Positions 38,901-64,000 of a DNA stretch of 64,000 bases are shown piece by piece. The notes under the pieces were generated by a model, which had not been told where the DNA came from, did no database searches, and was given only the letters and a program-made list of their open reading frames with translations. Position 1 is the first letter of the stretch. Every line of letters starts with the position of its first letter. The DNA is from Sphaerodactylus townsendi. Lineage: Eukaryota. The translations under genes were made by a program, and so were the position numbers. The stretch spans positions 33,914,001 through 33,978,000 of the forward strand of contig NC_059437.1 in assembly GCF_021028975.2 (NCBI RefSeq), in the 5' to 3' direction.

Positions 38901-41900
38901 TTTCTGGTGGTTCCAGACTTCTAAAATCCCAAGGCATTAGTGTTGAATGTCCCAATTTTGTGATTGTACTGGCTCACTGTGTATAATCTGCCATCAGTCC
39001 CTGTGAAAAAGGTGGGCTAGTAATGAAATAAATAAATAAATAATTCCCCTTTGTCCTTCTCATTCACTCCTTCCTGTAGGTGAGTAAAGTGTTCAACATT
39101 TACACTGATGGAACGGGACTGAGAGTCGTCCAACTGACTGGGCAGAAGTCTTTTGTGAAGGAGCAAGAGTCTCTTGTTGAGAAAACGTAAGTTTAATCCT
39201 TACGTTGGTGTTACTTGTATATCATTTCATTGAGTTGGCTCATTTATTGAACAGATGAAGATCTGAGCAACAGACTCAGATGAGAGTTTGTCTGATCATT
39301 CTGTTCTTAATCACTCCAGCTAGGGTTCTTAGAATGGGGGTCGCTGCCACAGCTTTCCATATTATCATGGAATCCAGAGTGGAATCCTGAACTTTGGGTG
39401 TCAAAAACCAGAAAGGAAACCCAAGCATTATCTGACAGGAGTGTGTGGGCATCATTTTTACAGTGAGTTGTGGGATACAGTGAATAAATTATCCCTTTCC
39501 AAAATGAGCAAACTGTTGGCTTGGCTGATCCTGAGTAGTCCTGGGCAAATGGATGTCACGGTCTTCAACGTTGAGAGAAGGCTCAGCATTTCCTATCTTT
39601 GTCTATCTAATACACATATTTGTACATACACATATCCACAGCAGTGGCAGTCACATCCCATAGTAAGCTCTCATTCACTGGCATTTCCCAGGCTCACTGG
39701 ATTCCGCAGTCTGGCAGACATTGTTGTAGCCACCCCTGGGCGCCTGGTGGACCATCTTCAGCAAAGTCCTCAGTTCAGCTTGAGAGAACTTCGTTTCCTG
39801 GTGAGTAGCAAATCTGCCTGTCTAAACCCACTGATCATGTTTGCAGTTCACTTCAAGTACCTTCTTCTGTCTGTAGCAGTGCTGTGGACATGGCTGGGCC
39901 CTGTTGAAATAAATGGGATGTTGACTGAAGTATTTTTCACTAGCCTGTTGTAATCCACGTGCAGGGTTTCTGTATGTGTGCATGCACCCTATGGCAGTTT
40001 CGTGGCTCTCCATTGACTGAGGCTCTTTAGTTCCCATGTAGGGTTGATACAATTCCTATTCCTGATTCCCAGCTGCATGTGCTGAAAGCCCTGGCTTGGC
40101 TATAGGAAGCATGGCTGAAAATCCATTTGGTGTGTCCGTAGAGGTTAATCATCCCTATTTCCTCTTATGGACTCCTTCTTGTGCTCAATTGTACATGAGG
40201 GTAGATCATTGATGAAGCCGACCGCATGATTGACAGCATGAACCAGGACTGGCTGTCCCAGGTTGTGAAGGCTGTGTATGGACCTGATGAAGGCACAGGA
40301 CCCGGTCGGCTGTTCAGGAGGGCACCACAGGAACCCATCACAGCAGCCAGGTGAGTTAACCCACAGGGACTAGGAGGGAGACACGGAAACGTGGTTACTT
40401 GGTGGTCTGCGCAGGCAGAAGGTCAAAGGACTAGGGTGTCGTGGAAAGAGCACAGGAGGCAGAGCAGTGGAGCCCACGTCTCCTCACTCTTAGAAGTTCA
40501 GTCAGTCTTTTGGAATTGAAAACTCTATAGTCAGCTCTTTCTACTAAAGGTTCAAAGGCTGAGCTGGTTCCAGGATGGCCCTGTGAGCAAGCTGAGACCT
40601 GAAAGCTGTCCTGTTGATTCCAAGCCCTCAAGATGTAGCTTCATGCTCAGAGAGTGAAGCAGGCCTGGAAAAGGGCCAAACAAAGAGGGCCAAAGGCTGG
40701 AGGTGCTTTTCTTTGTGCTGCAGAGCTGCTTTGCTAGGAAGGAATGCCTTTTGTCGTTCCAGAGCCTTCTTCCCCCAGATCCCTTTGCAAAAACTCCTTT
40801 TCTCAGCCACACTGAGCCGGGATCCAGAGAAGCTGCAGCAATTGGGCCTCTATAAGCCCCGCCTCTTTACTTCTGTCTATGCCAAAGCACAGCCTGATGG
40901 TACCGAGATGCAGCAGGAGATGGAGAAGAAATACACCCTCCCCGAGGGGCTCTCGGTAAGAAGTGTGGCTTTTATCATCAGGTTGATGTGCATGATTGAC
41001 ATAAAGCCTGGTACCTCCTCTGACCAAAGAATTGGCAGTATGTTTGGGGAGAACCCTTGCTGGAAAAAGGGGGTGGGCGTGGCATGGGACTTTTCAGCAT
41101 TCACTTTTCCAGGAAAGCAGTGACTGGGGTCCAGACAATGTAAAAAGAGGTCAATATTTTAGGCAACAGCCTGATACTACAGGGCATGGGCCAGGCAAGG
41201 GCAAAAGTCCTTTTAACAGCAGACAGATTTGGCCTGGGAAACTGTTAACACAGCAGTTCAGAAAATAAGGCACAAGAGTCAGCAAACATTTGGTGGCTTC
41301 CCAGCCAACATTACATTCCTGAATGTGTTCAGTGTTCTGTAGTTATTTCCTGGCTTCCTGGTTTTGGGAGATTCTGGTTAACGGGTGAAGATTTTATGGT
41401 TGGAACTCATCATCAACTTTTTGAAATGGAAATAAATATTTGCAGAGAGATGAGTCACGATTCCTACATCAGTAACTTATGCTTGAGAGAGTAAAACCAG
41501 AAACTTGGCATGGAACACAAGTTCATGTTGCTGGTGACAAAAATGCACTGAACTATTGTTGATGGGTATTTGAAAATTAGATCCTTTTAAAGCTGCCTGT
41601 TAATGCCATCCAGTCAAGGAGCATGAGCAGTTTGGTCTGGCAACAGTTTAACGCCCCTGATCCTCCCGAGGGAAGCTAGAGTTCTGTGTGCAGTGGCTGT
41701 CTGTTCTTGTTTCCCGCAGCAATATTACGTGCCCTGCAACCTGCGATCCAAACCGCTGCTCCTTCTGCATTTTCTGTTGAGGATGAAATTCAGCCGAGTT
41801 CTGTGTTTCACTAACAGTAAAGAAACTTCCCACAGGTGAGCGTTCAGCTTGACACGCACTGGGCTGGCTTGTGCCTTGGCTGGCTGAAGGTTGTTTCTCT

Positions 41901-44116
41901 CATTCGCTCTCTCTGTCCCCAGGTTGTTCCTTTTAATTCGAGCCTTTGGCGGAGTGAAAGTGGCAGAGTTCTCTTCCCGTCTGAGTCCAGGAGAGAGAAA
42001 AAGGGCCTTGAAAGAATTTGAACAAGGAAAGATCCAGCTGTGAGTGTCCACTGAAAGCTTGAGAGTGGAAGTGTTGTGCACCGCAAACCTGCAAAACTTG
42101 GGGGATGTGGCAGTGAGGTGTGGGTGTTTTTTCCTTCAAGGGATTGAGTGCAGCAGGCAAGCTTAGAGGCTCCAACCCCTGCATAATACTGGCTCTTCAA
42201 CTAGCAACAGAGTTGTGTTGCACCCTCCAGGTTTGCATTAGGAAGCCCCCAGTCTTTTGTGACTTCTAGGATTCATCCTTGCCTCTGTTTCTAAGTATGG
42301 AAAGATGTTTCTAAATATGCTAACCTGTGCAGGTGTCTGGGGGCCTCCCAAACCCTCGCTTTGCCCATTAATGATCTGACACGGTCACAGATCTGGAGAT
42401 CAGCAGTCATACCCTGATCTGCTGTGTCAGTGTTTGGGCTGTGACAAGATGACCTTTGAATACCTTTCCTTTCAAACAGCTTAATCAGCACAGATGCCAC
42501 GGCTCGTGGAATCGACATTGGAGGAGTGAAATATGTAATCAGCTACGATGCCCCTCAATTTATCAGGACCTATGTTCACCGGTAATGTCTTCAAAGAAAA
42601 ATGCCCCCTCCCCACAATTAAAAAAAAATTCATTTCATTCTTGGAGCTTGAAATCAGCAATGCATCACTTACTTCAGCGTATGCTGACAAGAACTGTGCT
42701 GATGGTGAAATGTGCCGTTCTTCTGTTGTCTTTCAGGGTGGGCAGAACAGCTCGAGCTGGGAAAGCTGGCCTGGCCTTCACCATGCTGCTGAAAGTGCAG
42801 GTATATTGTCCACTGGCTCTTGATTTCTTCCCAAAATTGGCACCTTCCATGAACTGTGTTGGCTGCAGAGACACGTCTCTTGCTTGCGTGGCTTCCGAGA
42901 AGAGATTCAAATGTCATGGCAAGACTGGGGTAGCAGCAGCTTTGAAAAAGGAACCTGCAGAGTTGGCCAGGGGGCGGTGACGGGACACAGGACTGAAGCT
43001 GTGATCCTTGGCTGCCTGGCTCAATTGGTGGACATTTTCTAAGGCTTCTTTAGTTTCTTGGGAAGGAGGTTTTGCTGACTGGCTCTCATTGTCCAGGAAC
43101 GGAAATTCCTGAAAATGCTGAAAGAAGGTGGCCTTCCTGAGTTGGAACAACAGTTGGTGAAGAGCGAGAACCTCAAGCCTCTCCTCCAGCAGTATGAAGA
43201 AGCACTAGCTGAACTCCGGAATGTTGTCAAGGTACTGCTGGCTTCCAAGACGGGACCTCTGGTGTCAGCAGGAGTCTGTCAGCTGGGAGTCAGCAGCAGG
43301 GAAAGAGGCAGACAGGCATAGCTGAGAACTACGAGGCCAAGCCTCAAAGCTGCTGTATCAGGATTTATTTTATTTCTTTGCTGTCAAGTCACAGCTGACT
43401 TATGGCGATCCTGTACAATTTTCAAGGCAAGAGATGCTACTGCCTGCCTCTGCATCTCGCCCTTGGTATTTCTTGGAGGACTCCCGTCCAAATACTTGCC
43501 AGAGTCTCAGCTGAGTTTGACAGGCCTAGGGTCACCCAGCAAGTTTCCATGGCAGAGTGGAGATTCAAACATGAGTTTTCCAGGTCCTACTCTGATAGTG
43601 TAGTGTGTCTGTACTCACAGGTAGAAGGTGGTAGTAAAGGGCAGTGTAGCTGTCAGAACTGGAAGAAAAGAGATGGTGGGTTTCTAGGCATGAGGAATTG
43701 CTGCAAGTGAGAAGCTCCCAGCAGCAGGCAGTGAAATCTGGGCCCTGCTGTGTCTTCTGAAGTAGCAGGGATCAAGGCTGGACTTTGATAGGAGAGTCAG
43801 CACAATATAATAGCAGTAATTTTATACTAAGACCTGATGGGACCTGGGTTCAAATTCTGCTTGACCATGAAGCTTGCTGTACAACCTTGGCCCAATCATT
43901 AGTCTCTCTAATTTGTTTCCCAGAACTGTAGTAGCAATAAAGTTGGGAGAAGGGGAGGGATAAAGTAAGTTAATGTAAAGTAGAAATGCCAGAAGCTTTC
44001 TTTGTTTCCTTTGCTGAAACTGATCCTGGATTCCACAGTTGCTTGCTGAGAACATTAGCCAGGCATGACTGCTTCTTTTGTCTCGACAGGAGGAGCAAGC
44101 CATGAAGCGATCCTGA
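29839..44116 (+). CDS. DDX51: ATP-dependent DEAD-box RNA helicase DDX51 (Dbp6 family), 16 exons, about 685 aa
   Basis: Exons 29839-29861, 32132-32496, 33181-33365, 34609-34759, 35838-35983, 37033-37104, 39080-39186, 39692-39800, 40205-40350, 40763-40955, 41720-41835, 41923-42039, 42480-42581, 42737-42800, 43097-43231, 44090-44116. Sum 2058 nt, open frame. Motifs [47 protein letters not shown]; N-terminus MALFLVNRY. The exon 3 acceptor is tentative. Confidence 0.96.
37415..37729 (-). mobile_element. Solo LTR (315 bp) in DDX51 intron 6
   Basis: TGTTG...CAACA termini, 5-bp TSD ATGAA (37410-37414 and 37730-37734), AATAAA on the - strand near 37480. Confidence 0.75.
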
Positions 44117-45575: not shown

Positions 45576-48500
45576 ATGGGCCTGGAACTTTACTTGGACC
45601 TGCTCTCTCAGCCCTGCCGATCTGTCTACATTTTTGCCAAGAAAAATGGCATTCCTTTTGAGTTCAAGCCTGTGACGCTAATGAAAGGTGAGAAGGGGAG
45701 CTGGATTCATGGGCTAGACTTTGGGGTGCCTTGTTTTACACAGTAACCATTGATGTTAACCATCCAAGCAATCACATTCTTAGTGTAAATCGAGTCAGGG
45801 TGGATGGTTGGTTTTCCGAACTAGGTCTGAGTTCTTTTAATCTGCACTGAGAATTTTACCTATATCTGTGGCTAATTAACATTGATTTGAGGAAGAAAAA
45901 CCTTTTCTGTGCATATTTGAGCGTGATGGGTGTTTGAGATAGCTAACGCCTTCAGGGGCAGCTAAGTGGGTGATAAACCATTTACTGCGCAGCCACCTTC
46001 ACTGATGCACGTGGACTGAATTAGGAGAATTAATCTGTGTGGTCCTACAAGATGGGTTATTTTGTTGGGCTGGGTGGTCTTTCAGTTTTTTCCCAGTTGA
46101 TGCTCTGATAGTTTTCTATGGCATGTTAAGGGTATTTTGCAGTACATGTTGATGGCTGTGGGCATGAAAATGGTGTGTGCGCCTAAACACAAATAGTTAC
46201 TTGTATCTGGCAATTGCTTATATGACTGTACCCCAAGATCCTTGCTTGCTCTGTGCAACAACACCATTGTTGGAAGGTGTGAGTGAATGATAACAGCTGG
46301 CTTAGAAAGAAATGACAGGCAAGCAAATGCACAAAACCCAAGTTCGCCCAGTCCATATGATAGCGCAGCACTGGCAGAACTGGGTGCTGTATGACCTTTT
46401 TGAGCAAACCAGCCTGAGGGAAGCTCTTGGCACTCTTTCTTGAGAGCAGGTACTGTTAACTCCTCTTGTAAACCTATCTAGGGCAACACAAGTCTGAAGA
46501 GTTTAGCAAGGTAAATCTCCTGGGGAAAGTTCCAGCTCTGAAAGATGCCGACTTCACCTTAGCAGAGAGGTAAGGATTGGGTGTCTTTGCTGGGATTTGG
46601 GAATGGAGACTGTTCAGCTACCACTAAACTTCTGCAGCATCTACGGCAGGGGTTCTCAACATTTTTAAACCTGTGGGCATTTCTTGAGTTTTGAAAGGGG
46701 TTAGCAGACACCATTACAAAATGGCAGCTCCAGGAACTAAGACCAGTCACAAAAAGTTGGGCAGTTCCAAGCCAAGCATCCTCCTATGGGGGGGGGGGGG
46801 ATGTTTTTGATGTGCTCCTTACAGACCCAAAGGTGTTGTCTTTTGAAGCACTCTCTGCTCAATTGTGATAGAGAAAAGCTAGGACCAACTATTTTGCTTT
46901 GGAGAATAAGCAAGTGGCTGCCAGGACATACATTGCCAAGGTGCTCATGGGCACCACAGGTCCTGTGTGAACTGCAAAAAAAAAAATCTGCTCACTCTCT
47001 CTCTCTTGCATTTTTATCAGTTCCAAGACCTTGTAGTTGCAGAAAGAGGTATTTCTGTGTCATTTGCAAAAAGCTGATAGAGGGCAGTTTTGAAACAGGT
47101 TCCTGTTGACTTGCAAACTTACCTCTTTCCTTTTAGTGTGTTGGTAGGACCCCTACAAAATAGGTGGTACCGGCTGTGCCTGAGTAAATTCTAGGCTCAT
47201 ACAAACTTAGCTGCTGAAAAACCACTGCATCTGTTGCCTTTGGCTTTTTCTAGATTAACAGTGGAGGCCCTTCAAGATCCTTCTAGCTTTTCTGGAAGGG
47301 ATGTTATAGAGCTGACCACTGTTACATCCTATAGCACTGTCCCCAATATCATTGGCATTTGCAGAATCTCCTTTTTCTGATGCATCAACCTCCTACAACT
47401 TACATCCTTTTCTCCCTCTCTCCCTCCTTCCCTTGAACAGCATTGCTATCCTTTTGTACCTAGCAAGGAAATTCAAAACTCCCGATCACTGGTACCCCTC
47501 TGATCTGCAGAAACGAGCCCGTGTGGATGAGTATCTGTCTTGGCAACATATGGCGACTCGCTTGTGTGGGAGCAAAGTGTTCCTGATCAAGGTAAAGAAT
47601 ATGTAAGTCCCGCTCCTGTGTACACAGCACAGGATCAAACTGGAGGACAGTATTGTTTGCAATGCCAAGAACGTTGGTAGGCATTTTCATAGCCTAATTT
47701 TAAAAAAATTAAAAATTGTGAGAGCAAGTTGAGCTGTGCTCTTGAAGACATTAAGCAGCATGCTCAGTAAAGGACGGGATAAGCACTTTCATATTCTTCT
47801 GGCCTTTGAAGTTCTCTTTGCAACTGGCTGTAACCTCGGCCCTGTGAAGAGAAAGTGGTCATGTTTCCTAGCAGGAAAAAACCTTGTCTGGCTACTGGTG
47901 CCTTGAACTGAATGCCGTTTGGGACGTTTGGGAAGGGCAAGGCAGGGGTATAGGCTTCGTATGTCTGGCCAGTGGGCAAGCAGGGGTTTAATGGATTTAT
48001 GTAAGGATCCAAACTGTAGTGGTCCTGCTGATCTCCTCTTGCTTTTCAAAACTTCAAACTAGAACAAAGTGCTGATCACGGTGCAATGTCAAAGACCTGA
48101 GTTCAATACAGAGTCTGCAACAGTAGCACCAGGCACCTGGTGAGGGATTTTGCCTGTACTATTGGGGCCCACAGAGTGCACTGAATTTTTTCCCCCCAAT
48201 GCTTGGAAAATATCTTTGCATCATTTTCCCAAGAACTAGAAGGAAGGCAGACCTGGGAATGCTTGGAGACCCTCTTGCTGAGAAACAAAGGGCTTGTGTA
48301 GAAAGGTCTGAAAGTTCATCCAGCCTTACTAACCCAGCATAGCCCAATACTATCACAGCTTGGAAGCTAAGTAGGGTCAGCCATGGTTAGTACTTAGATG
48401 GAAAACCACTAAAGAAGCCTGGGGTTGCTTTGCAGAGGAAGGTAAATGGCAAACTATCTCTGCTCTTCTCTTGCCTGGAATACCTCCGTGGTCCTGGCGT

Positions 48501-49724
48501 AATCATGAGTCAGTTGTGAGTTGATGACATACAATAATTATTAATTATGGTACGAAAAAGAAAGCTGAATGGAAAGCATGGGGGCCGCTAAAACAGAGCA
48601 GGAATAAATGGCCAAGCATGTGAAACTGGTTGTCATCTTTCCCCCTCCATTTTGTGCCTTCCTGGCTGCTGCAGCGTGAGTGGGTTAAAAGCAGCATCCA
48701 GTAAGGGACAGGTTGCGAATCTCTCTCCTTCCTCTCCTGGCTAGGCTATAGCACCTGCCTTTTTGGATGAGCCGCTTTCACCAGCAAAGTTAGATGGTGC
48801 CATTGAAGATCTGAATGGAGTCCTGAAGCTGTTTGAAGAGAAATTCCTCCAGGACAGACGATTCATCACAGGCCAAGAGATCTCCTTGGCAGACCTCGTG
48901 GCCATTGTAGAAGTCATGCAGGTGAGCACTTCAATGTCTGATGACAAAAAAACCCCATTCTAGACGCCCCCTGGCAATCCCCTCACAGAGCTGCAGCAGG
49001 GAAGCTTTGCAATCTGGTGAAGGAGGGGATGTCTCTCTTTACCTCTTTGTGGGGTTGAGGCTCCCCATGTAACTGCGAGCTGCCATAGGCCCCCCAAAAA
49101 AACTCCTCCTTGACTGCATTTAAATAAGCACCACATTATGAAGCAAAGGAAGGGGAGGAAAGGTCAGCAATCAAAAATTAAAAAGGCTGTGCATTCAGCA
49201 GGATTTACTTTCTCATTCTTTATTCCATCTCAGTACAGCAAACCAGAGACAAACCAGGTAAGGAAGACACCAGTGTGCTAAAGGGGTAAAGCTTGGCTAG
49301 GAATCCAGACTAACTTTAACTCTTTTCTTAACTGGAAGATGTAGCAGTTATTCTCTTGAGAAAACTACATTTGATGATTTCAAAGCAAGCAAATTGAAGC
49401 CCTGAGATGTTAGCCTTGGCTGGCAGGCAGTTGGTTGAAGTAATAGAAATAGGTGACTGTTCTCTAAATCTATCTTTAAAATGTGAAAGAGCCACACCAT
49501 TTACCTACTAACCCACTTTTACATTGCAGCCCCTTGCAGGTGGTTATGATGTTTTTGAAGGCAGACCCAAGATGGCAGCGTGGCGCCAAAGAGTAGAAGA
49601 AGCCATTGGCAAGGACCTCTTCCTGGAAGCGCATGAGCCGCTCTTAAAGCCCAAGGCTGCAGAGAATCTCCCTCCTGAACTAAAGGAGCAGCTGAAGAAA
49701 AATCTGCTGAAATATATCAAATGA
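45576..49724 (+). CDS. Glutathione S-transferase theta, copy 1 (canonical 5 exons, 240 aa)
   Basis: Exons 45576-45687 (112), 46482-46569 (88), 47441-47591 (151), 48745-48921 (177), 49530-49724 (195). Catalytic Ser in LLSQPCR; KVPALKD, LAESIAIL, ISLADL. Confidence 0.96.
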
Positions 49725-54134: not shown

Positions 54135-57100
54135 ATGGCGCTGGAGCTCTACCTGGACCTGCTCTCCCAGCCCTGTCGAGCCATCTACATCTTTGCCAAG
54201 AAGAACAACATTCCCTTTGAGTTCAAGGACGTGGAGGTGTTCAGAGGTAAGGAGAGACAAAACTCAGCGGGAGGGAGAGAGGGAGGAAGCTGGGGTCATA
54301 TCACAGCTTCTCATTTCTTTTCTGGAGAAATTCTGCCTGTGAAATATGAGCAGTCTCAACGAAATGAAGGGTTTTATTGCATGTTTTGGGATGAAGGAAC
54401 TGTACTCGACAACAGTGATCGTCATGCGGGAGTTCAATTGTGCCTTAAAGACTAACACAGTTCATTTCAGTGTGAGCTTTGATGAATCAGAGTTCACTTC
54501 CTCAGATTCTTAGAAACATACATGCATCAGGCTGGGTTAAAAATCAGAAAGAGGAATGAGGGAAATGTTACAAAGAGGCGGGTATGAAACAAGATCCGGT
54601 CAAGACAACTCAGTAAAAACAAGAATTGGTTTGGCTAAGATAGGTGTGAGACTCGTTCAACCAGCAACAGCAAAGAATAAACATCACAACCAAGGCTGGA
54701 AACAATGAAATAGAGGAAGAAATTAACAACTGCAAGGGATCAGCTAAGAATGCAAGCTATTGGCACCTATAGTGAGTTAGGAATCCCAGGTCTCTGTTAA
54801 GTCTGGGATGATGGGACATTGCCTGGAATTTGTTTATTTCCATCCACGCACCCACATAGGATCCTGCCTCTCAATGTATTTTGAAGGAGAACAATCACTT
54901 TTAAATCACGCACAGTTTTTCCAGGGAGGCTAACATCGTGGTCCCTTTGGAATTATTTACCAGTAATTATTGGCTCTGAAATAATGAATGAATGAATCCT
55001 TAACAAAAGATGTGATATTGTGTACACTCCCACTGTTACCTGGCTTGGTAATAACCTAGCAAAACTGCCAAGAAGACTCTGCAGAAAAAATCAATGGCAA
55101 ATCAACTCTGCTTCTTGCTTACCTTGAAAGCCCCTCTATAGGGGTGTCATAAGTTGGCTGCAGCCTGACAGCAAAAGCCATCTTCCCCCGGCTGCCCAAG
55201 TCAGATAACAAGAACTACTAAGGCAGATGTTCATCTTGGGACCAAGTTACTGATGAGTAGAAGTCTGGAGAATCTCACTCCTCCACATAAAGCCTACTGA
55301 GTGACCTCGGGCTCATCACAGTTTTCTCAGAATTCACGCAGTCCACCCAGAGGCAGGCAATGGCAAACCATCTCTAAATGTCTCTAGTCTTGAAAACCTT
55401 ATGATTTGCCATAAGTAACTTGACAGTTCAGTCCACACAGCTGTGTTTGTGTGGACTGTCAAGTTACTTATGGCAAACCATAGGGTTTTTCAAGAGACCA
55501 ACAAGATTTTGCAGTTATGAGCTTTTAAGAGTCAAAACTTCCTTCATGAGAAATCAAGGGAAGTTTTGACTCAAATTTATACCGTGAAATTCTTGTTGGC
55601 CTCTAAGGTGCTACTGGACTCCAGTCTAGCTGTTTTACTGCATACCAACATAGCTGCCTCTGAAACTGGAGATAGGGGCCACTTTCTTGTTTCCTGAAAC
55701 TATGAGCTCTCAGCCAGTGGACCTGCTACTCAGCAACTGGTGAATGTACAGTTGTGATCCCTGGGGATATGTTGGTTACACAATATGTTTGCTGGCTCTG
55801 GCAGACAGGGCCTTGAAGCTTGAACAATACGCAATCTTCAGCTCAGTTTTGCGTAGTAGGAAGGGGTGTTTCTCTTTAGAAAATGTAGTAAGGAGAGCAC
55901 ATGCCCCTCACATTATGTCTAATTGCCTTTATATTGCCAGATTCCATCCTGGGAATGAAAGCACCAAGTGAAACAAGCCCAGGATCAGTACAGCCAGGTA
56001 AACTGCTTTTCCATGATATAAAAGAATAATGGCAGACCCAAGGGCTGGCCCAGCAATACAGGCAAGGCAGATGTCTAGGCAACAAAACTCAAAAGGGCCT
56101 TCCTACATCAGAATCACCAGGCACCAGCCCCTCCTTTCGTGCTGCTTCCAAACTGATCTCCTGGCAATTGCTTCCTGGGAAAGTTGAGGAGGAGATGTCC
56201 TTCAACATTTTATTGGTTTTGTTTGTATGGTTAGTTTCTCCATCTTGCGTACCTGTCCTTACTACCTCTCTGATGCTTCCAGGTGAATACAGCGACAACC
56301 CTTTTAACATTTTCCTAGGAATAAGTCCCACTGAATGAAATACGATTTCCTTCTGTATAGACCTGCTTAAGATTGCTCCCTGTGACTCCTGCAGTGTTTG
56401 TGTACCAGTGCAGCACTGACACACCACTAAGTGGAAAAGCCTGCAGGTTGCCACATTGCTCCAAAGCCAATCCAAACCCAAAGGACACATCATACCTTCC
56501 ATTAGGACCAACCAAAATGTCACAAAACTGTATGCAAGCTTTTGAGTACTTCAGAACTTTTCTCCAGAAGTGGCTAATAAGTACCACTGGAAAATGAACC
56601 AACATTGAAGGATACTTTTTGTCACTGACATTACCAGATATAAATAGAAAAGAAGCAGAAATTGGGTAAGGGTGTATGTATTTTGTTATAGATAAATGTT
56701 AGTCATAATTCAATATGTGCTCTGTGTCACCAATACTACTACTACTAACTTTCAGATAATTTGTGAGAATGAATGCACAAACTGCAGGAGACAGCCAGAG
56801 GCAGCAATTTTCGCTTCTGACCCTGGCGGAGTGAAACAGCCAAGAAAGAATTTCCCGTAGGAACAAGCTTCCAGATAAATGGTTCAACCTCCAATGTTGA
56901 ACAAGTGAGATTGTGACCCCCAGGTCTATGAGGCCCGGGAAAAGATACACATGTTGATCATGTCTTGACCTGTGCAGATGGAACATTCAGAGTATCTGAA
57001 AAGGTTTAGACAGTGTGACGCTTGCGCACATTTGCATGAGTTTGTTAAAAACCACTAAACATCTTACTCAGTTCATGCTGGCATGGGACACATCAGGAAA

Positions 57101-60100
57101 AGCTTCTCTGTAGGAATTTGTAAGTGTGCAAAGGGGCCTAAAGAATGCAATTCACCAACCACAGTCTTGTGAAATTAAAGAAGGATTTTTCTGGAGCAGC
57201 AGTTGCTGGTCTGCATATTTAATATTCTGAGGGGTACTGGGCCTTGGAATGAGAAAGGAGAGAAGTCCCATCACCTCACAGCTAAAGACAGACCCTTACT
57301 AAACCGCATTCCACAGTTTCCTTAGGATACACCAAGCTGCGATGGTTAGTTTTATAACAGCAGTTAAGCACTAGAATATTAAACACATTTGTGATGTCAA
57401 GTGGTGTGTGAGGAACTGTTTGCACAAACAAGGTCCAGTAAGTCATTGAGTCTGCTGCGTTGAGGCCTGCTGCCTCTCTCGAAGGGGTTGCCCCCAGGTA
57501 GCCCAAAGTACACTTTCTCCCCTGATAAGAGGAGTTCCTGGGCCTGTAATTTTTAATCAGAATTCCACCCCACCCCCCTTCTTGTGCTTATTTTTCTGTT
57601 TGCAATGTAAACATGCCCTTGTTGAATCCAATCCAAAGGGCAACTGATGTTGTGAGGATCCTATTCCGCACACAAGGCCTATGCACACAAGAAATTGTTG
57701 AAGCCCTGATGGAAGTTGCTTTTTGCTGCAGAGATGAGATTGGCTCCTGATTTCCCCACGTGAAAGACTGGAGATAAGACATCTCGCCTTTGAACATTGC
57801 CTTTTGGGCCATGCCTCTTGCCAGACCATGCTTGGGAAAGCTGTGAGCTTCTCTTTTAGAACAATCTCTGCCTGTTCCTCTATTGCAGGGATTGCAGTGG
57901 TGGGATTCAGCAGGTTCGCACCACTTTGGCAGAGCCAGTTGTTAAAATGGTGCTTGTAAACAACCAATTGTTAAATTATTTGAATCACACCACCAGAACT
58001 GGTTGTTAAATTATTTGACTCCCACCACTGAGGGATTCGTCCCTGGGATGTCTATCTAACTACCCACCTTGGGAAGAAAAACGTTGCATTATATCTAGCT
58101 CTGTCCCAGAGTAATCATCCTTACCTTGTACATAGAAAACCATTTGCCCTGTTTATTTCCAGTGCAGAATCCAGGTCTTTCTTACGTTTCAGAGCTGGAC
58201 AGATTGCCAAAGCCACTAGGTATGCAGAAAGATGTTTAGAAAAGTACAACTGTTTAACTAGGGAGGCCCTGAGAAATATTCCAAGTGTGTGCGCACATGC
58301 AGGTGTGCATGTCTTGCCTGTACTCTGACTCTAGGCTGCAATTTTTCTTTCTTTGCTTTAGAGCAGTTGCGCAAGATGAATGTAGTGAAAAAAGTTCCTG
58401 TCTTGAAGGATGAGGCCTTTTGCTTGTCAGAAGGGTAAGGAGCAATAAAGCAGGACTTTTTTGCCCAATAATCTTATCTTTTGCTAGGCTACTTCCCATG
58501 GCAGATTTTCTCTGCCCTAGCGTCTCAAACTGGTACAGATATTTTGAAACACTCATATGATGCGGTCATTTTCCCATAGTTCTCCTTCTGGTTTTCCCTA
58601 GTTTACCTCAGTGATTTCCAAACCTGTTTTTCTCAGACCTTACCAGAGACATCAGATTCACAGCAGGTTTGCCCACAGCATAGATGGGAAGGAGAATGTT
58701 TATCAAACTCTCCACATACATCTAGCTCTGTTTTCTTTGTGTCCCCTTGCATTTGCAAGGCCTCCCAACCATCACCCATAGGCTTGTTGGCTTAAAAAAC
58801 AAACCAACCAGGAATGGGGATACTAGTGTAGCTTGATGACCCTGTGGTGTTATACCTACTAACCCTTTAAAAAAAACTAGTGATGAGTGCACACCAACAA
58901 ATCATCTTGGTATGGAAGTAGCCTTGAGAATGCAATGTTGGGACAGGTAGTGTTCACTATTTGTAGTGAGCCAGTTTGAAGTCTAGGGCAAGATGGGATA
59001 TATAAATGTGCAGAGAACCCCTCTCCCAGTACCTCCATTCTTGAGTTTTGGCAAGGCAGTCTCTAGGAGAGGGAGGGTATTCCACAGTTGTGGGGTAGGT
59101 ACCAAGACCATTACTCTCTGATGTCATGATACAAATCATCCAGACTCAAAATGGTGTCATTCTGGTGTTCAGGACTACAACAAAGTAGAGGGAAAGTGGT
59201 AAGGCAGTTGAGCTACATGTCTGTAATTGCTTTGGTCTTCTTCAACATGCAAGCAAGCCTTTATTCGGGGGAGGGGGGGGTTGGCTTTAACTGAGCAAGT
59301 TTCCCATTTAATTGGGCAGCTGACTCCATTGTTTCAGAGACAAATGCTAGCTATAATCTTGTTTCTCTTTTCTCTGGCTCTCTGCCTTCCATTACTGTCT
59401 TGGTAGCATTGCAATCCTTCTGTATCTGAGCCGCAAGTACAACACCCCAGACCACTGGTATCCATCTGATATACGGAAACGAGCAAAGGTGGATGAATAT
59501 CTCTCGTGGCACCAGACAAATATCCGGTCCAATGCTCCCAAGACAATGTGGATCAAGGTGAGGGATCTGAAAAGTGCCGAATGTTTGGTGAGCTTTTGGA
59601 GACTCCCTGTGCCCTCTACTGCTTGGCCCAGAGCCTTGATAGTACAGTCAGGATAGTACAGGATAAGATGAAGACCCTTTCCCATTCTGTATTTCTTGAT
59701 TTTACTGACTTAATTCCTAAGATTTATTAGAATTGACTTGAATTATCCTCAGGAATTGTAGTTATCCATCCCCCTCCTGGGTATGTTCTGCTGTGCCCCT
59801 CCTCACAACAACACTACTCTCCTCCTTTCTATACTTGGTCAGTGTTGTCACCAAATTGCCAAGTAGTCCTGTCTGGGTCTCTCATTCAGCTTCTGAAGGA
59901 TCTCTGCCTACTTTTTTCACACAGTGTGAGCCTCTGGGCAGCCATCTCAGTATGGAACTTCATATTATCACCTCAGTTCTTAGCTTTATTGCCTACCGTT
60001 TTCTAGGAGTGCTCCCTCCGGTTGTCCCTTTTCTTTTTCCAGATGGAGCGTGTAAATTAAATGCCTTACAAGTGATGCTTCCTATGCGCTGCCCCTACTA

Positions 60101-61169
60101 TTCATAGGGGCCTTACAAAGATAAGAGGGGGAGCTCATGTCTGAAAACTGTCCATCTCACCCAGGTGTTGATACCTCTCTTCACTGGCCAACCACTTTCC
60201 TCTGATAAGCTGCAAGAGGTCATGGAGGGGCTGGCAACCTCCCTGAAGCAGCTGGAAGACTTATTCCTTCAGGACAAACCTTTCCTTGTGGGCAATGAGA
60301 TCTCTCTTGCAGACCTGATGGCCATTGTAGAGCTCATGCAGGTAAGGCCTGGCTGATAAAAAAAAATTCAGGCACAAGCAATGCCATTTCTTCAGGCACT
60401 TGGGTCCTTGCTTTCTTTCACCCCCAGTTGATGACATCTTCCAGGCTGAGCTCAAGTGTGGAATGTTTGCCTAAGGGTAACCAGTGGGTTTTCAAATGAT
60501 AGAAGCTATAAACACAGTATACAATGAACCCTACGCAGTGGACAGCTGCACAGCAGAAAGGCAATGGTCCAAAGTGACCCAAGTAGATGTGCAAAACCAA
60601 GGTCAAGCATGGTATATAGGACAGCAAATTATATCCTGAACTTCATATGCCTGCTTTGACTCTTCACTCCTAATTCTAGAAAGACTTGATTTGCCCTTCT
60701 GAGCTTTACTCTCTCATGCCAAGGTCCTGCACTACATCCCTGTTCCAAAATGCAGCATAGGCATTACCTCAACCATGATATGGTACCAAGATAGCACCAG
60801 AGTGAGTGAGCCTGACTACAATATTAGTGGGAGTTGCTGCTTGCAGGGACACGGAGCCTGGCTAGAGACATAGTAAAGGAGTAGCCTTCCAAAGATCCGA
60901 GGCTGTTGCCAGGGTCATTCACGCAGTGTATTTGTGCTGCTCTTGCCACATCTGTCCTATATCTGCAGCCTGTTGGAGTTGGATGCAACATCTTTGAGGA
61001 CAGACCCAAGCTAGCAGCATGGCGCAAAAGGGTGGAAGAAGCAATTGGAAAGGAGATCTTCCTCCAAGCACACAAGCTGATCCTGAACATTCAAGAACTG
61101 AGCAAGATACAGATCAATCCACAGCTGAAGGAGCAGCTGGGTCCTGTGCTGCTGAAGATGCTGAAATGA
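54135..61169 (+). CDS. GSTT1: Glutathione S-transferase theta, copy 2 (long-insert type; about 265 aa with both extra exons)
   Basis: Exons 54135-54246 (112), 55941-55997 (57, extra), 58193-58219 (27, putative microexon), 58362-58434 (73), 59407-59557 (151), 60165-60341 (177), 60969-61169 (201). The frame is open with or without the extra exons. The C-terminal half closely matches my recollection of chicken GSTT1; the symbol reflects that and does not imply proven orthology to human GSTT1. Confidence 0.9.
54465..54935 (-). mobile_element. Penelope-like element 3' remnant (GIY-YIG C-terminus plus decayed hammerhead motif)
   Basis: The - strand translates ..[14 protein letters not shown] at about 54762-54803. 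CTGAGGAAGTGAACTCTGATTCATCAAAGC lies at about 54476-54505 on the - strand. Confidence 0.6.
55388..55497. repeat. Hairpin formed by tail-to-tail Sauria-SINE-like 3' ends
   Basis: TCTTGAAAACCTTATGATTTGCCATAAGTAACTTGACAG vs CTGTCAAGTTACTTATGGCAAACCATAGGGTTTTTCAAGA. Confidence 0.75.
57895..58030. mobile_element. Short hAT MITE (CAGTGGTGGGA TIR family)
   Basis: TIRs CAGTGGTGGGA / TCCCACCACTG; TSD AGGGATTG vs AGGGATTC (7/8 match). Confidence 0.8.
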
Positions 61170-63116: not shown

Positions 63117-63228
63117 ATGGTGCTGGAACTCTACTTAGATCTACTCTCCCAGCCCTGCAGGGCGGTCTACATCTTCGCCAAGAAGAACAGCATCCCTTTC
63201 GTTGTGAAAAACATAGAGATGCTTAAAG
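63117..63228 (+). CDS. Glutathione S-transferase theta, copy 3; exon 1 only (rest lies beyond the window)
   Basis: [38 protein letters not shown]|gtgatc; 112-nt phase-1 exon, the same size as exon 1 of the other two copies. Confidence 0.9.
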
Positions 63229-64000
63229 GTGATCAGGAGCGAGGAGAAAGAAATCTGAAATATACTTTTCTGTCTCAGTTCTTTGACACATATGCACAGG
63301 TAGCATCCATTGTGTTCAAACAGATCAATTGTTTAGCAGTTTCTTCTCTAATAAGTTCAGTGGGAAGGGAGAGAGGCAGAAATGTAAAACAGATACGCAA
63401 TCACAATTTCGAGAGTGACAAGATTGATTTTAGCATAAGGTTTTGTTACTCAGAGCTCACTTTATCAGATACACTCCTATCTGGGATGGTTGTCAGCTTC
63501 AGGAAGGACATGTCTGGAAAGGTGGGGAGGAAGATAACACCTGATTGGCCAGTCAGAATAGCAGGATCAGTCCTGGGGATATCAAGAGGGTGACAGATGT
63601 TCCACCCAGATCACTTTCACATATACTTTATCAGATACATACATTTTATATTGATAAGGATGACGAATGTAAAGGCAGAAAACAACAGAAAGACAAGGGA
63701 GATGTTACATCTTTACAGTTTGTAATGGATATCTCAAGTCAGTGAAATAAGTAAGATGTAAAATCACAGGCAATTTTGTCAGGGACATCAGCCTGTAGAG
63801 GTTATGGATACTGGTATTCCTTTTTTTGCCATTTGTCATTGGGCCTTCAGAAATCCAGTTCTGCATCTTTCTGTCTCTGCTTCCTACTCTCCCAGAGTCT
63901 CATCTCCTGACATGGCTGAAGGGATTTACCCCAGGTACTACTCATCCCTTTGTAATCTGCCAGATACTTACACATGGCTTGAATAGTCGTTCTATGAGAG

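Follow-up and report, generated by a model that had tools for sequence, protein, structure and literature searches.

The window, a 64,000-nucleotide stretch of the genome of the gecko Sphaerodactylus townsendi (NCBI RefSeq assembly GCF_021028975.2, contig NC_059437.1, positions 33,914,001 to 33,978,000), contained a cluster of tandemly arranged theta-class glutathione transferase (GST) genes, copies 1, 2 and 3, all on the + strand. In the second copy (54135-61169), two small stretches had been proposed from the DNA letters as hidden exons inserted into the glutathione-binding domain: one of 57 nucleotides (nt) at 55941..55997, hereafter exon A, and one of 27 nt at 58193..58219, hereafter stretch B. 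We found that exon A is a real, already annotated exon. With a probability of about 0.8, exon A is an old shared exon of the main gecko product, in which it likely takes the place of some of the lid over the glutathione site (G-site), and stretch B is an unused look-alike. The verdicts on the two exons are firmer than the functional steps.

The positions, lengths, flanking AG and GT and 1-1 phase assigned to both stretches by the sequence-only reading agreed with the DNA, and both stretches were free of stop codons. All four splice models, with A and B each in or out, were open and encoded 265, 256, 246 and 237 amino acids (aa); this follows from exon-length arithmetic and is no evidence of use. 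The 256-aa model, in which exon 1, exon A and the following 73-nt exon are joined, was letter-for-letter identical to the public gecko gene model P0050, so exon A was not hidden, and its existence, known from public annotations from chicken to gecko, is no discovery. None of the 128 proteins compared was identical to any of the other three models, including both models with B. P0050 contained the N- and C-terminal GST domains, with Pfam PF02798 (GST_N) at 26.7 bits and PF00043 (GST_C) at 35.1 bits, both above the cut-off.

Transcript evidence came from one RNA run (X1) among five sequence runs; this run derived from a related gecko and not from the window's species. An 844-nt RNA contig (X1 record 1) differed from the window at 35 letters over the 742 aligned. 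Exon 1 was found at positions 40-168 of this record and the 73-nt exon at 232-299, with 63 letters between them (57 plus the 2 and 4 bases at the two exon ends that did not align), whereas inclusion of B would have given 90. X1 had a depth of 15.1 over the bin that contains A, compared with 0 over the one that contains B. Inclusion of A was read from these record coordinates and bin depths, the A piece itself being absent from the aligned rows listed.

Splice sites were scored with a matrix built from a small training set of 18 donors and 19 acceptors from the region. Exon A scored 14.5, which was matched by pseudo-exons in 17.5% of shuffled introns, and its acceptor was weak (4.8, compared with 6.6-13.5). 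Splice scores alone were thus insufficient, and exon A is established because of homology. It showed the features of a conserved cassette exon, namely GT-AG ends, a preserved frame, conservation in orthologs and presence in transcripts.

Within the ortholog group of copy 2, exon A was present in all species of geckos (7/7), other lizards (11/11), snakes (20/20) and crocodilians (4/4), in 19 of 23 turtles and 4 of 7 birds, and was absent from the one tuatara. This tally excluded partial proteins, proteins with divergent or unalignable N-termini and some redundant models (for example, P0007-9, P0023, P0029, P0031, P0032, P0040, P0054, P0057-59, P0061-66, P0095, P0151, P0160 and P0163-65); one omitted crocodile model, P0106, had no A and an altered junction. 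In a tree built without the insert, all 26 A-bearing rows fell into one 28-row clade (support 97/94) that was separate from copies 1 and 3; its other two rows, both annotated without A, were a protein of the tuatara and a protein of a side-necked turtle. Outside sauropsids, the insert was found neither in the one mammalian protein compared nor in the human structures, a set that tests its absence elsewhere weakly. Judged from these proteins, exon A is an old, sauropsid-wide exon, in line with the earlier suggestion from the DNA letters.

That suggestion had pointed to a similar insert in chicken GSTT1, and the Swiss-Prot entry (P20135) did bear a homologous one. Chicken GSTT1 (isoforms 1, 2 and 3: NP_990696.1, NP_001383217.1 and NP_001383218.1) belonged to the same ortholog group as gecko copy 2. 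The chicken protein resembled the gecko protein in having a 19-residue insert at the same place (isoform 1; skipped in isoform 2), in having lost the motif around His40 and in having a residue other than Ser at position 67. It differed in having a full-length next exon, with 18 residues to the Lys-Val-Pro loop instead of the 13 in the gecko. The curated chicken isoform 3 (P0056) contained 17 further residues between A and the next exon, and these were unlike B. In turtles, GSTT1-like pairs of 261 and 242 aa carried the same exon A, its length and phase being judged from the peptides.

Among the 33 proteins in which exon A was compared, its start was conserved, with Lys or Arg at position 7 in 31 and Pro at position 9 in 23; positions 1-5 had been used to select these rows, so their conservation is partly circular. 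The rest of exon A was variable in sequence and length, and the commonest residue reached frequencies of 0.39 and 0.27 at positions 11 and 12. This pattern, in which the Ser/Thr/Pro-rich second half was the least conserved part and the first 7 residues were conserved, speaks against a Pro/Ser-rich loop tuned by phosphorylation, as had been imagined for the insert. Conservation of the protein among most orthologs was 73-96%.

We also considered whether exon A could have arisen by duplication of the 3' portion of exon 2. Among 18 DNA comparisons, one gave a p of 0.013 (A and its flanks against exon 2 of copy 1); the same test gave 0.22 for copy 3 and 0.40 for copy 2, and peptide tests were mixed. 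A profile test placed the best gapped match of A on the Lys-Val-Pro loop (p 0.17-0.30), and hhalign gave no match. We do not claim such a duplication from a single nominal p of 0.013 that profile tests did not support. Neither copy 1 nor copy 3 showed a relic of A in its first intron (p 0.19-0.88), and 7 gecko copy-3 proteins had no insert.

The proposal of two exons thus held for A, through its identity to P0050, the RNA contig and the orthologs, and failed for B. Stretch B had the form of a microexon (no longer than 27 nt, a multiple of 3, GT-AG ends). Orthologs across sauropsids provided matching peptides for A; the B peptide was missing from all 9 copy-2 proteins of the 7 gecko species, and no look-alike of B was found among 168 proteins, the best score being 19 of 42 at unrelated places. 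The splice score of B was 10.5; stop-free, frame-preserving pseudo-exons with equal or better scores occurred 1.28 times per shuffled intron, and 70.5% of 200 shuffles contained at least one. In 11,642 control bases (other introns and spacer), 7 candidates as good as B were present. No second genomic match to B was found in a search that skips common words. The idea that B lies inside a repeat was rejected, as it is single-copy DNA. Approximately 160 bases before B is the end of a repeat at 57895-58030. This repeat and another at about 55285-55650, both in intronic DNA surrounding A and B, were of very high copy number (summed contig depth 10^5-10^6, in DNA-like runs).

The exon following exon A and stretch B (58362..58434) is 73 nt long, compared with 88 nt in copy 1, as the sequence-only reading had noted, and also in copy 3; it is therefore 5 codons below the canonical length. 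We rejected the notion that B makes up for these missing 15 nt, because 7 gecko species combined the 73-nt length with A and no B. In skip isoforms, the distance from the junction to Lys-Val-Pro was 13 residues in a gecko, 14-15 in snakes (13-15 in squamates) and 18 in turtles and birds. Judging by these lengths, the short exon is a squamate trait and not a sign of B.

It is highly improbable that B represents a genuine microexon, whether lineage-specific or neural, that would bring the isoforms to four. Its GT-AG ends, its length of 27 nt, its preserved frame and the lack of stop codons speak for it, as does its donor, the best-scoring one after that of A among the top candidates of the intron; moreover, microexons are often missed by annotation. 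Set against these features are its chance-level scores, the 0 of 9 gecko proteins, the lack of a similar peptide in the 168 proteins, its absence from the RNA contig and the 73-nt exon length common to geckos without B, and the last 20 intron bases before B contain no TGC, the motif of the SRRM4 rule. We conclude that B is likely an unused intronic look-alike at chance level, a pseudo-exon that most likely forms no part of the gene product, and that it should not be annotated as a microexon. The anticipated set of up to four isoforms by independent skipping was likewise unsupported. The only 27-nt option with outside support lies inside A and not at 58193, because an annotated leopard gecko isoform stops after the first 27 nt of the exon (55941..55967) and the window has a matching internal GT there.

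Three other stretches in the cluster also bore splice signals. A 39-nt open candidate in phase 1-1 at 63896-63934, in intron 1 of copy 3 and at the same gene position as exon A, scored 17.2, which was higher than exon A; it had no likeness to exon A and was absent from 7 gecko copy-3 proteins. That it scores above A and yet is missing from these proteins indicates that such splice scores prove little. The top control score of 18.8, also above exon A, belonged to an open 24-nt AG..GT stretch in phase 0 in the last intron of copy 1 (49234-49257). A second in-frame AG was located 27 nt upstream of the acceptor of the 73-nt exon (58335-58361; score 7.0), and the 27-nt 5' extension that it would give was present in no gecko protein.

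The structure of the 256-aa protein was predicted from 49 alignment rows, with a mean predicted local distance difference test (pLDDT) score of 84.8. The closest solved folds were mammalian theta GSTs, with Z-scores of 27.8-28.3 over residues 2-256, including the long C-terminal extension. In particular, superposition on human GSTT1-1 gave a Z-score of 28.3, with an rmsd of 2.4 over 233 residues, and other GST classes reached Z-scores of 20.7 or less. The model contained β2 at residues 29-32, a helix at 35-41 that took in the first residues of A, a helix at 57-65, β3 at 70-73 and the last helix at 241-255. The fold predicted for the skip form P0049 was uninformative, with a pLDDT below 50 in the N-terminal domain from a shallow alignment of 24 rows. 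Human GSTT1-1 and GSTT2-2 (PDB 2C3Q, 2C3N, 1LJR and 4MPF) matched the gecko ortholog P0005 with E-values of 2e-78 and 3e-65. They had Ser11, Lys53, Pro55 and Glu66 in common with gecko copy 2, but they lacked the insert; the β2-α2 region of the gecko protein was longer by a net 14 residues, and His40 and Ser67 were not kept there.

A published study lists His40, Lys53, Val54, Glu66, Ser67 and Thr104 as the G-site of human GSTT1-1 (PMC4029803). Exon A, which encodes residues 38-56, begins at the position of human Gly38, two residues before His40, and both this alignment and the predicted model agreed with the earlier placement of the insert after β2, at the wall of the G-site. In copy 2 of the window, Lys53-Val54-Pro55 and Glu66 were kept, whereas His40 and Ser67 were not: there was no Gly-Gln-His, and position 67 was Gly. 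Ser11 was present in all 39 rows compared. Across species, Gly-Gln-His was kept in 19 of 23 turtles, with a close variant in the other 4 and in the tuatara, whereas none of the 49 species of crocodilians, birds and squamates had it. A Ser occupied position 67 in each of the 23 turtles, in the tuatara and in the 4 crocodilians, and a Cys in birds; the residue was Gly or Cys in 7/7 geckos and Gly in most other squamates. The His40 motif is thus gone from the next exon in groups that mostly include A, and Ser67 has become Gly or Cys in squamates and birds, so exon A likely rebuilt one wall of the G-site. Glutathione is likely still bound by the included form, by way of Ser11, Lys53, Val54-Pro55 and Glu66, but with a changed affinity or a changed access for substrates.

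The same losses could be taken to mean that the A-bearing paralog is a low-activity or non-catalytic GST, a ligand carrier or partner protein, in which the conserved start of A would form a binding surface and not a lid. Squamates and birds have lost two residues from the G-site list in a protein that is otherwise strongly conserved (the 73-96% given above), and catalytically canonical paralogs adjoin copy 2. This explanation is nevertheless unlikely: Ser11, Lys53-Val54-Pro55 and Glu66 are kept, no partner is known from this analysis, and the kinetics of a silkworm theta GST were reported to be unchanged by the H40A substitution (PMC4029803), so the loss of His40 need not matter much.

Alternative splicing, which had been proposed for both stretches, was annotated for A in some species (chicken, turtles, leopard gecko and two snakes) and not for B. 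The curated chicken NP_ isoforms 1 and 2 corresponded to A included and A skipped. Included and skipped forms were both annotated in 12 of the 19 turtle species with A (10 of these as isoform pairs labelled as such and 2 by comparing annotation pipelines). Of 38 squamates, 3 had clean skip forms (leopard gecko, Candoia and Pseudonaja). These are counts that come from public gene models, hinge on annotation depth and involve species that are not independent. The Fisher p of 2e-5 for 12/19 versus 3/38 was not used as evidence because of this non-independence. The turtle skip form was a fully canonical theta GST with Gly-Gln-His and Ser67, unlike the gecko skip form, which was 5 residues shorter than canonical theta GSTs and had no His40 motif. 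This shortness and missing motif suggest that A is probably near-obligatory in squamates and not a free tuning switch. For the window's species, the one public model included A, and skip forms were seen only in the annotations of other species.

Exon A might act as a regulated switch in geckos too, with tissues tuning their glutathione-transferase activity by using all, half or none of it. Consistent with this, the leopard gecko had three annotated isoforms of 255, 246 and 237 aa, one of which (P0048) kept only the first 9 residues of A; the curated chicken isoforms were of 261, 242 and 278 aa; and two snakes had skip forms. The acceptor of exon A was weak (4.8), and weak acceptors are common in cassette exons. 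However, 6 of the 7 geckos had only an included model, the single RNA contig included A, and the product of skipping would be without 5 canonical residues. The internal donor after 55967 was also very weak in the window's species, with a score of 2.4 that was below all 18 training donors (4.5-13.5). We consider a switch of this kind in geckos doubtful and inclusion of A probably close to obligatory in squamates. Both the switch and the non-catalytic explanation are compatible with parts of the preferred reading, in which A is a fixed exon of the main product.

Under the preferred reading, exon A would have started as a true cassette exon, and turtles, which still appear to make a canonical 242-aa enzyme by skipping, would keep the ancestral two-state gene. 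Once the included form became dominant, the 5' part of the next exon may have decayed, as in archosaurs, or lost 3-5 codons, as in squamates, together with the His40 motif; squamate skipping would now yield a minor and likely impaired enzyme. In the predicted model, the short helix that follows β2 is extended by the initial residues of A and the rest would be a flexible linker to α2, so that the 19 residues of A at the His40 position likely form one wall of the glutathione site. A more specific scenario can be offered tentatively. A cassette exon of the reptile-bird ancestor, maybe a worn tandem copy of the adjacent Lys-Val-Pro loop exon, might have taken over the G-site lid of one paralog and so become something that the enzyme depends on, with archosaurs and squamates independently losing the His40 lid and birds and squamates swapping Ser67, possibly with a new function. 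Whether the His40 motif was lost once or twice was compared on the insert-free gene tree under constraints that follow known species relationships; Archelosauria (p-AU 0.12) and Lepidosauria (0.108) both passed the approximately unbiased test without rejection, and the tree showed neither. Gene conversion with neighboring paralogs in turtles and tuatara may be another source of the pattern.

Several observations weigh against the preferred reading. The insert was modelled at low confidence, with a pLDDT below 50 for residues 43-65, and the silent H40A substitution in silkworm GSTT, the partial circularity in the start of A and the reliance of the isoform counts on annotation depth point the same way. 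Skip forms are annotated in the three squamates named above, and Tiliqua and Podarcis muralis have models with another 5' piece in place of A. The RNA support is one contig from a relative that is approximately 95% alike, with none from the species itself, and contigs lose rare variants; rare or brain-only use of B is therefore compatible with this single contig.

The insert sits in a detoxifying enzyme of the liver type that is conserved in birds and reptiles. If its effect is real, it would bear on how poultry and reptile species differ in dealing with xenobiotics and offer a small, cheap model of an alternative exon becoming fixed. If the more specific scenario also holds, the turtle skip, turtle included, chicken and gecko forms would be a living and directly testable series in which an active site is rebuilt by an alternative exon. 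The effect of an insert at the wall of the glutathione site paired with the loss of two G-site residues is seemingly unstudied; we found no paper on this protein, the insert or its splicing in the open full-text literature searched. A 1995 paper on the chicken theta GST CL1 probably discusses the insert, which makes this statement tentative. One report mentions GSTT1 transcripts in chicken liver, in passages without exon detail (PMC13356752).

The remaining parts of copy 2 were laid out as follows. Exon 1 (54135..54246), which is covered by X1 record 1, contained the ATG, the catalytic Ser11 and β1-α1-β2 and ended in phase 1. The 73-nt exon encoded α2, the Lys-Val-Pro loop, β3-β4 and Glu66. 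The 151-nt exon (59407..59557), the 177-nt exon (60165..60341) and the last coding exon with the stop codon (60969..61169) were each placed by the sequence model and the X1 contig. Copy 1 (45576..49724), which served as the comparison paralog, had five exons encoding 240 aa, including a canonical 88-nt exon 2 with His40 and Ser67. Copy 3, of which exon 1 (63117..63228) lay in the window, encoded 242 aa with an 88-nt exon 2 and without exon A, and the gene ran past the window end (to L002:4891). The His40 position was Gln in copy 3 and in most gecko copy-3 proteins seen, and His40 was kept only by copy 1 of the cluster.

Directly upstream of the cluster, at about 40760-44116, the last exons of a DEAD-box helicase gene were recognized by eye from their motifs; this gene is presumably DDX51, and its splice sites served in the training set of the splice-site matrix. 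Seven public proteins of 359-484 aa (P0002, P0021, P0044, P0108, P0110, P0144 and P0146) looked like two adjacent GST-theta copies fused, which was seen directly in P0044 only, and such models are probably annotation read-through across the tandem cluster. A second RNA contig of 834 nt (X1 record 4) had loose ends that read like copy 1, pointing to a copy-1 ortholog in the same run.

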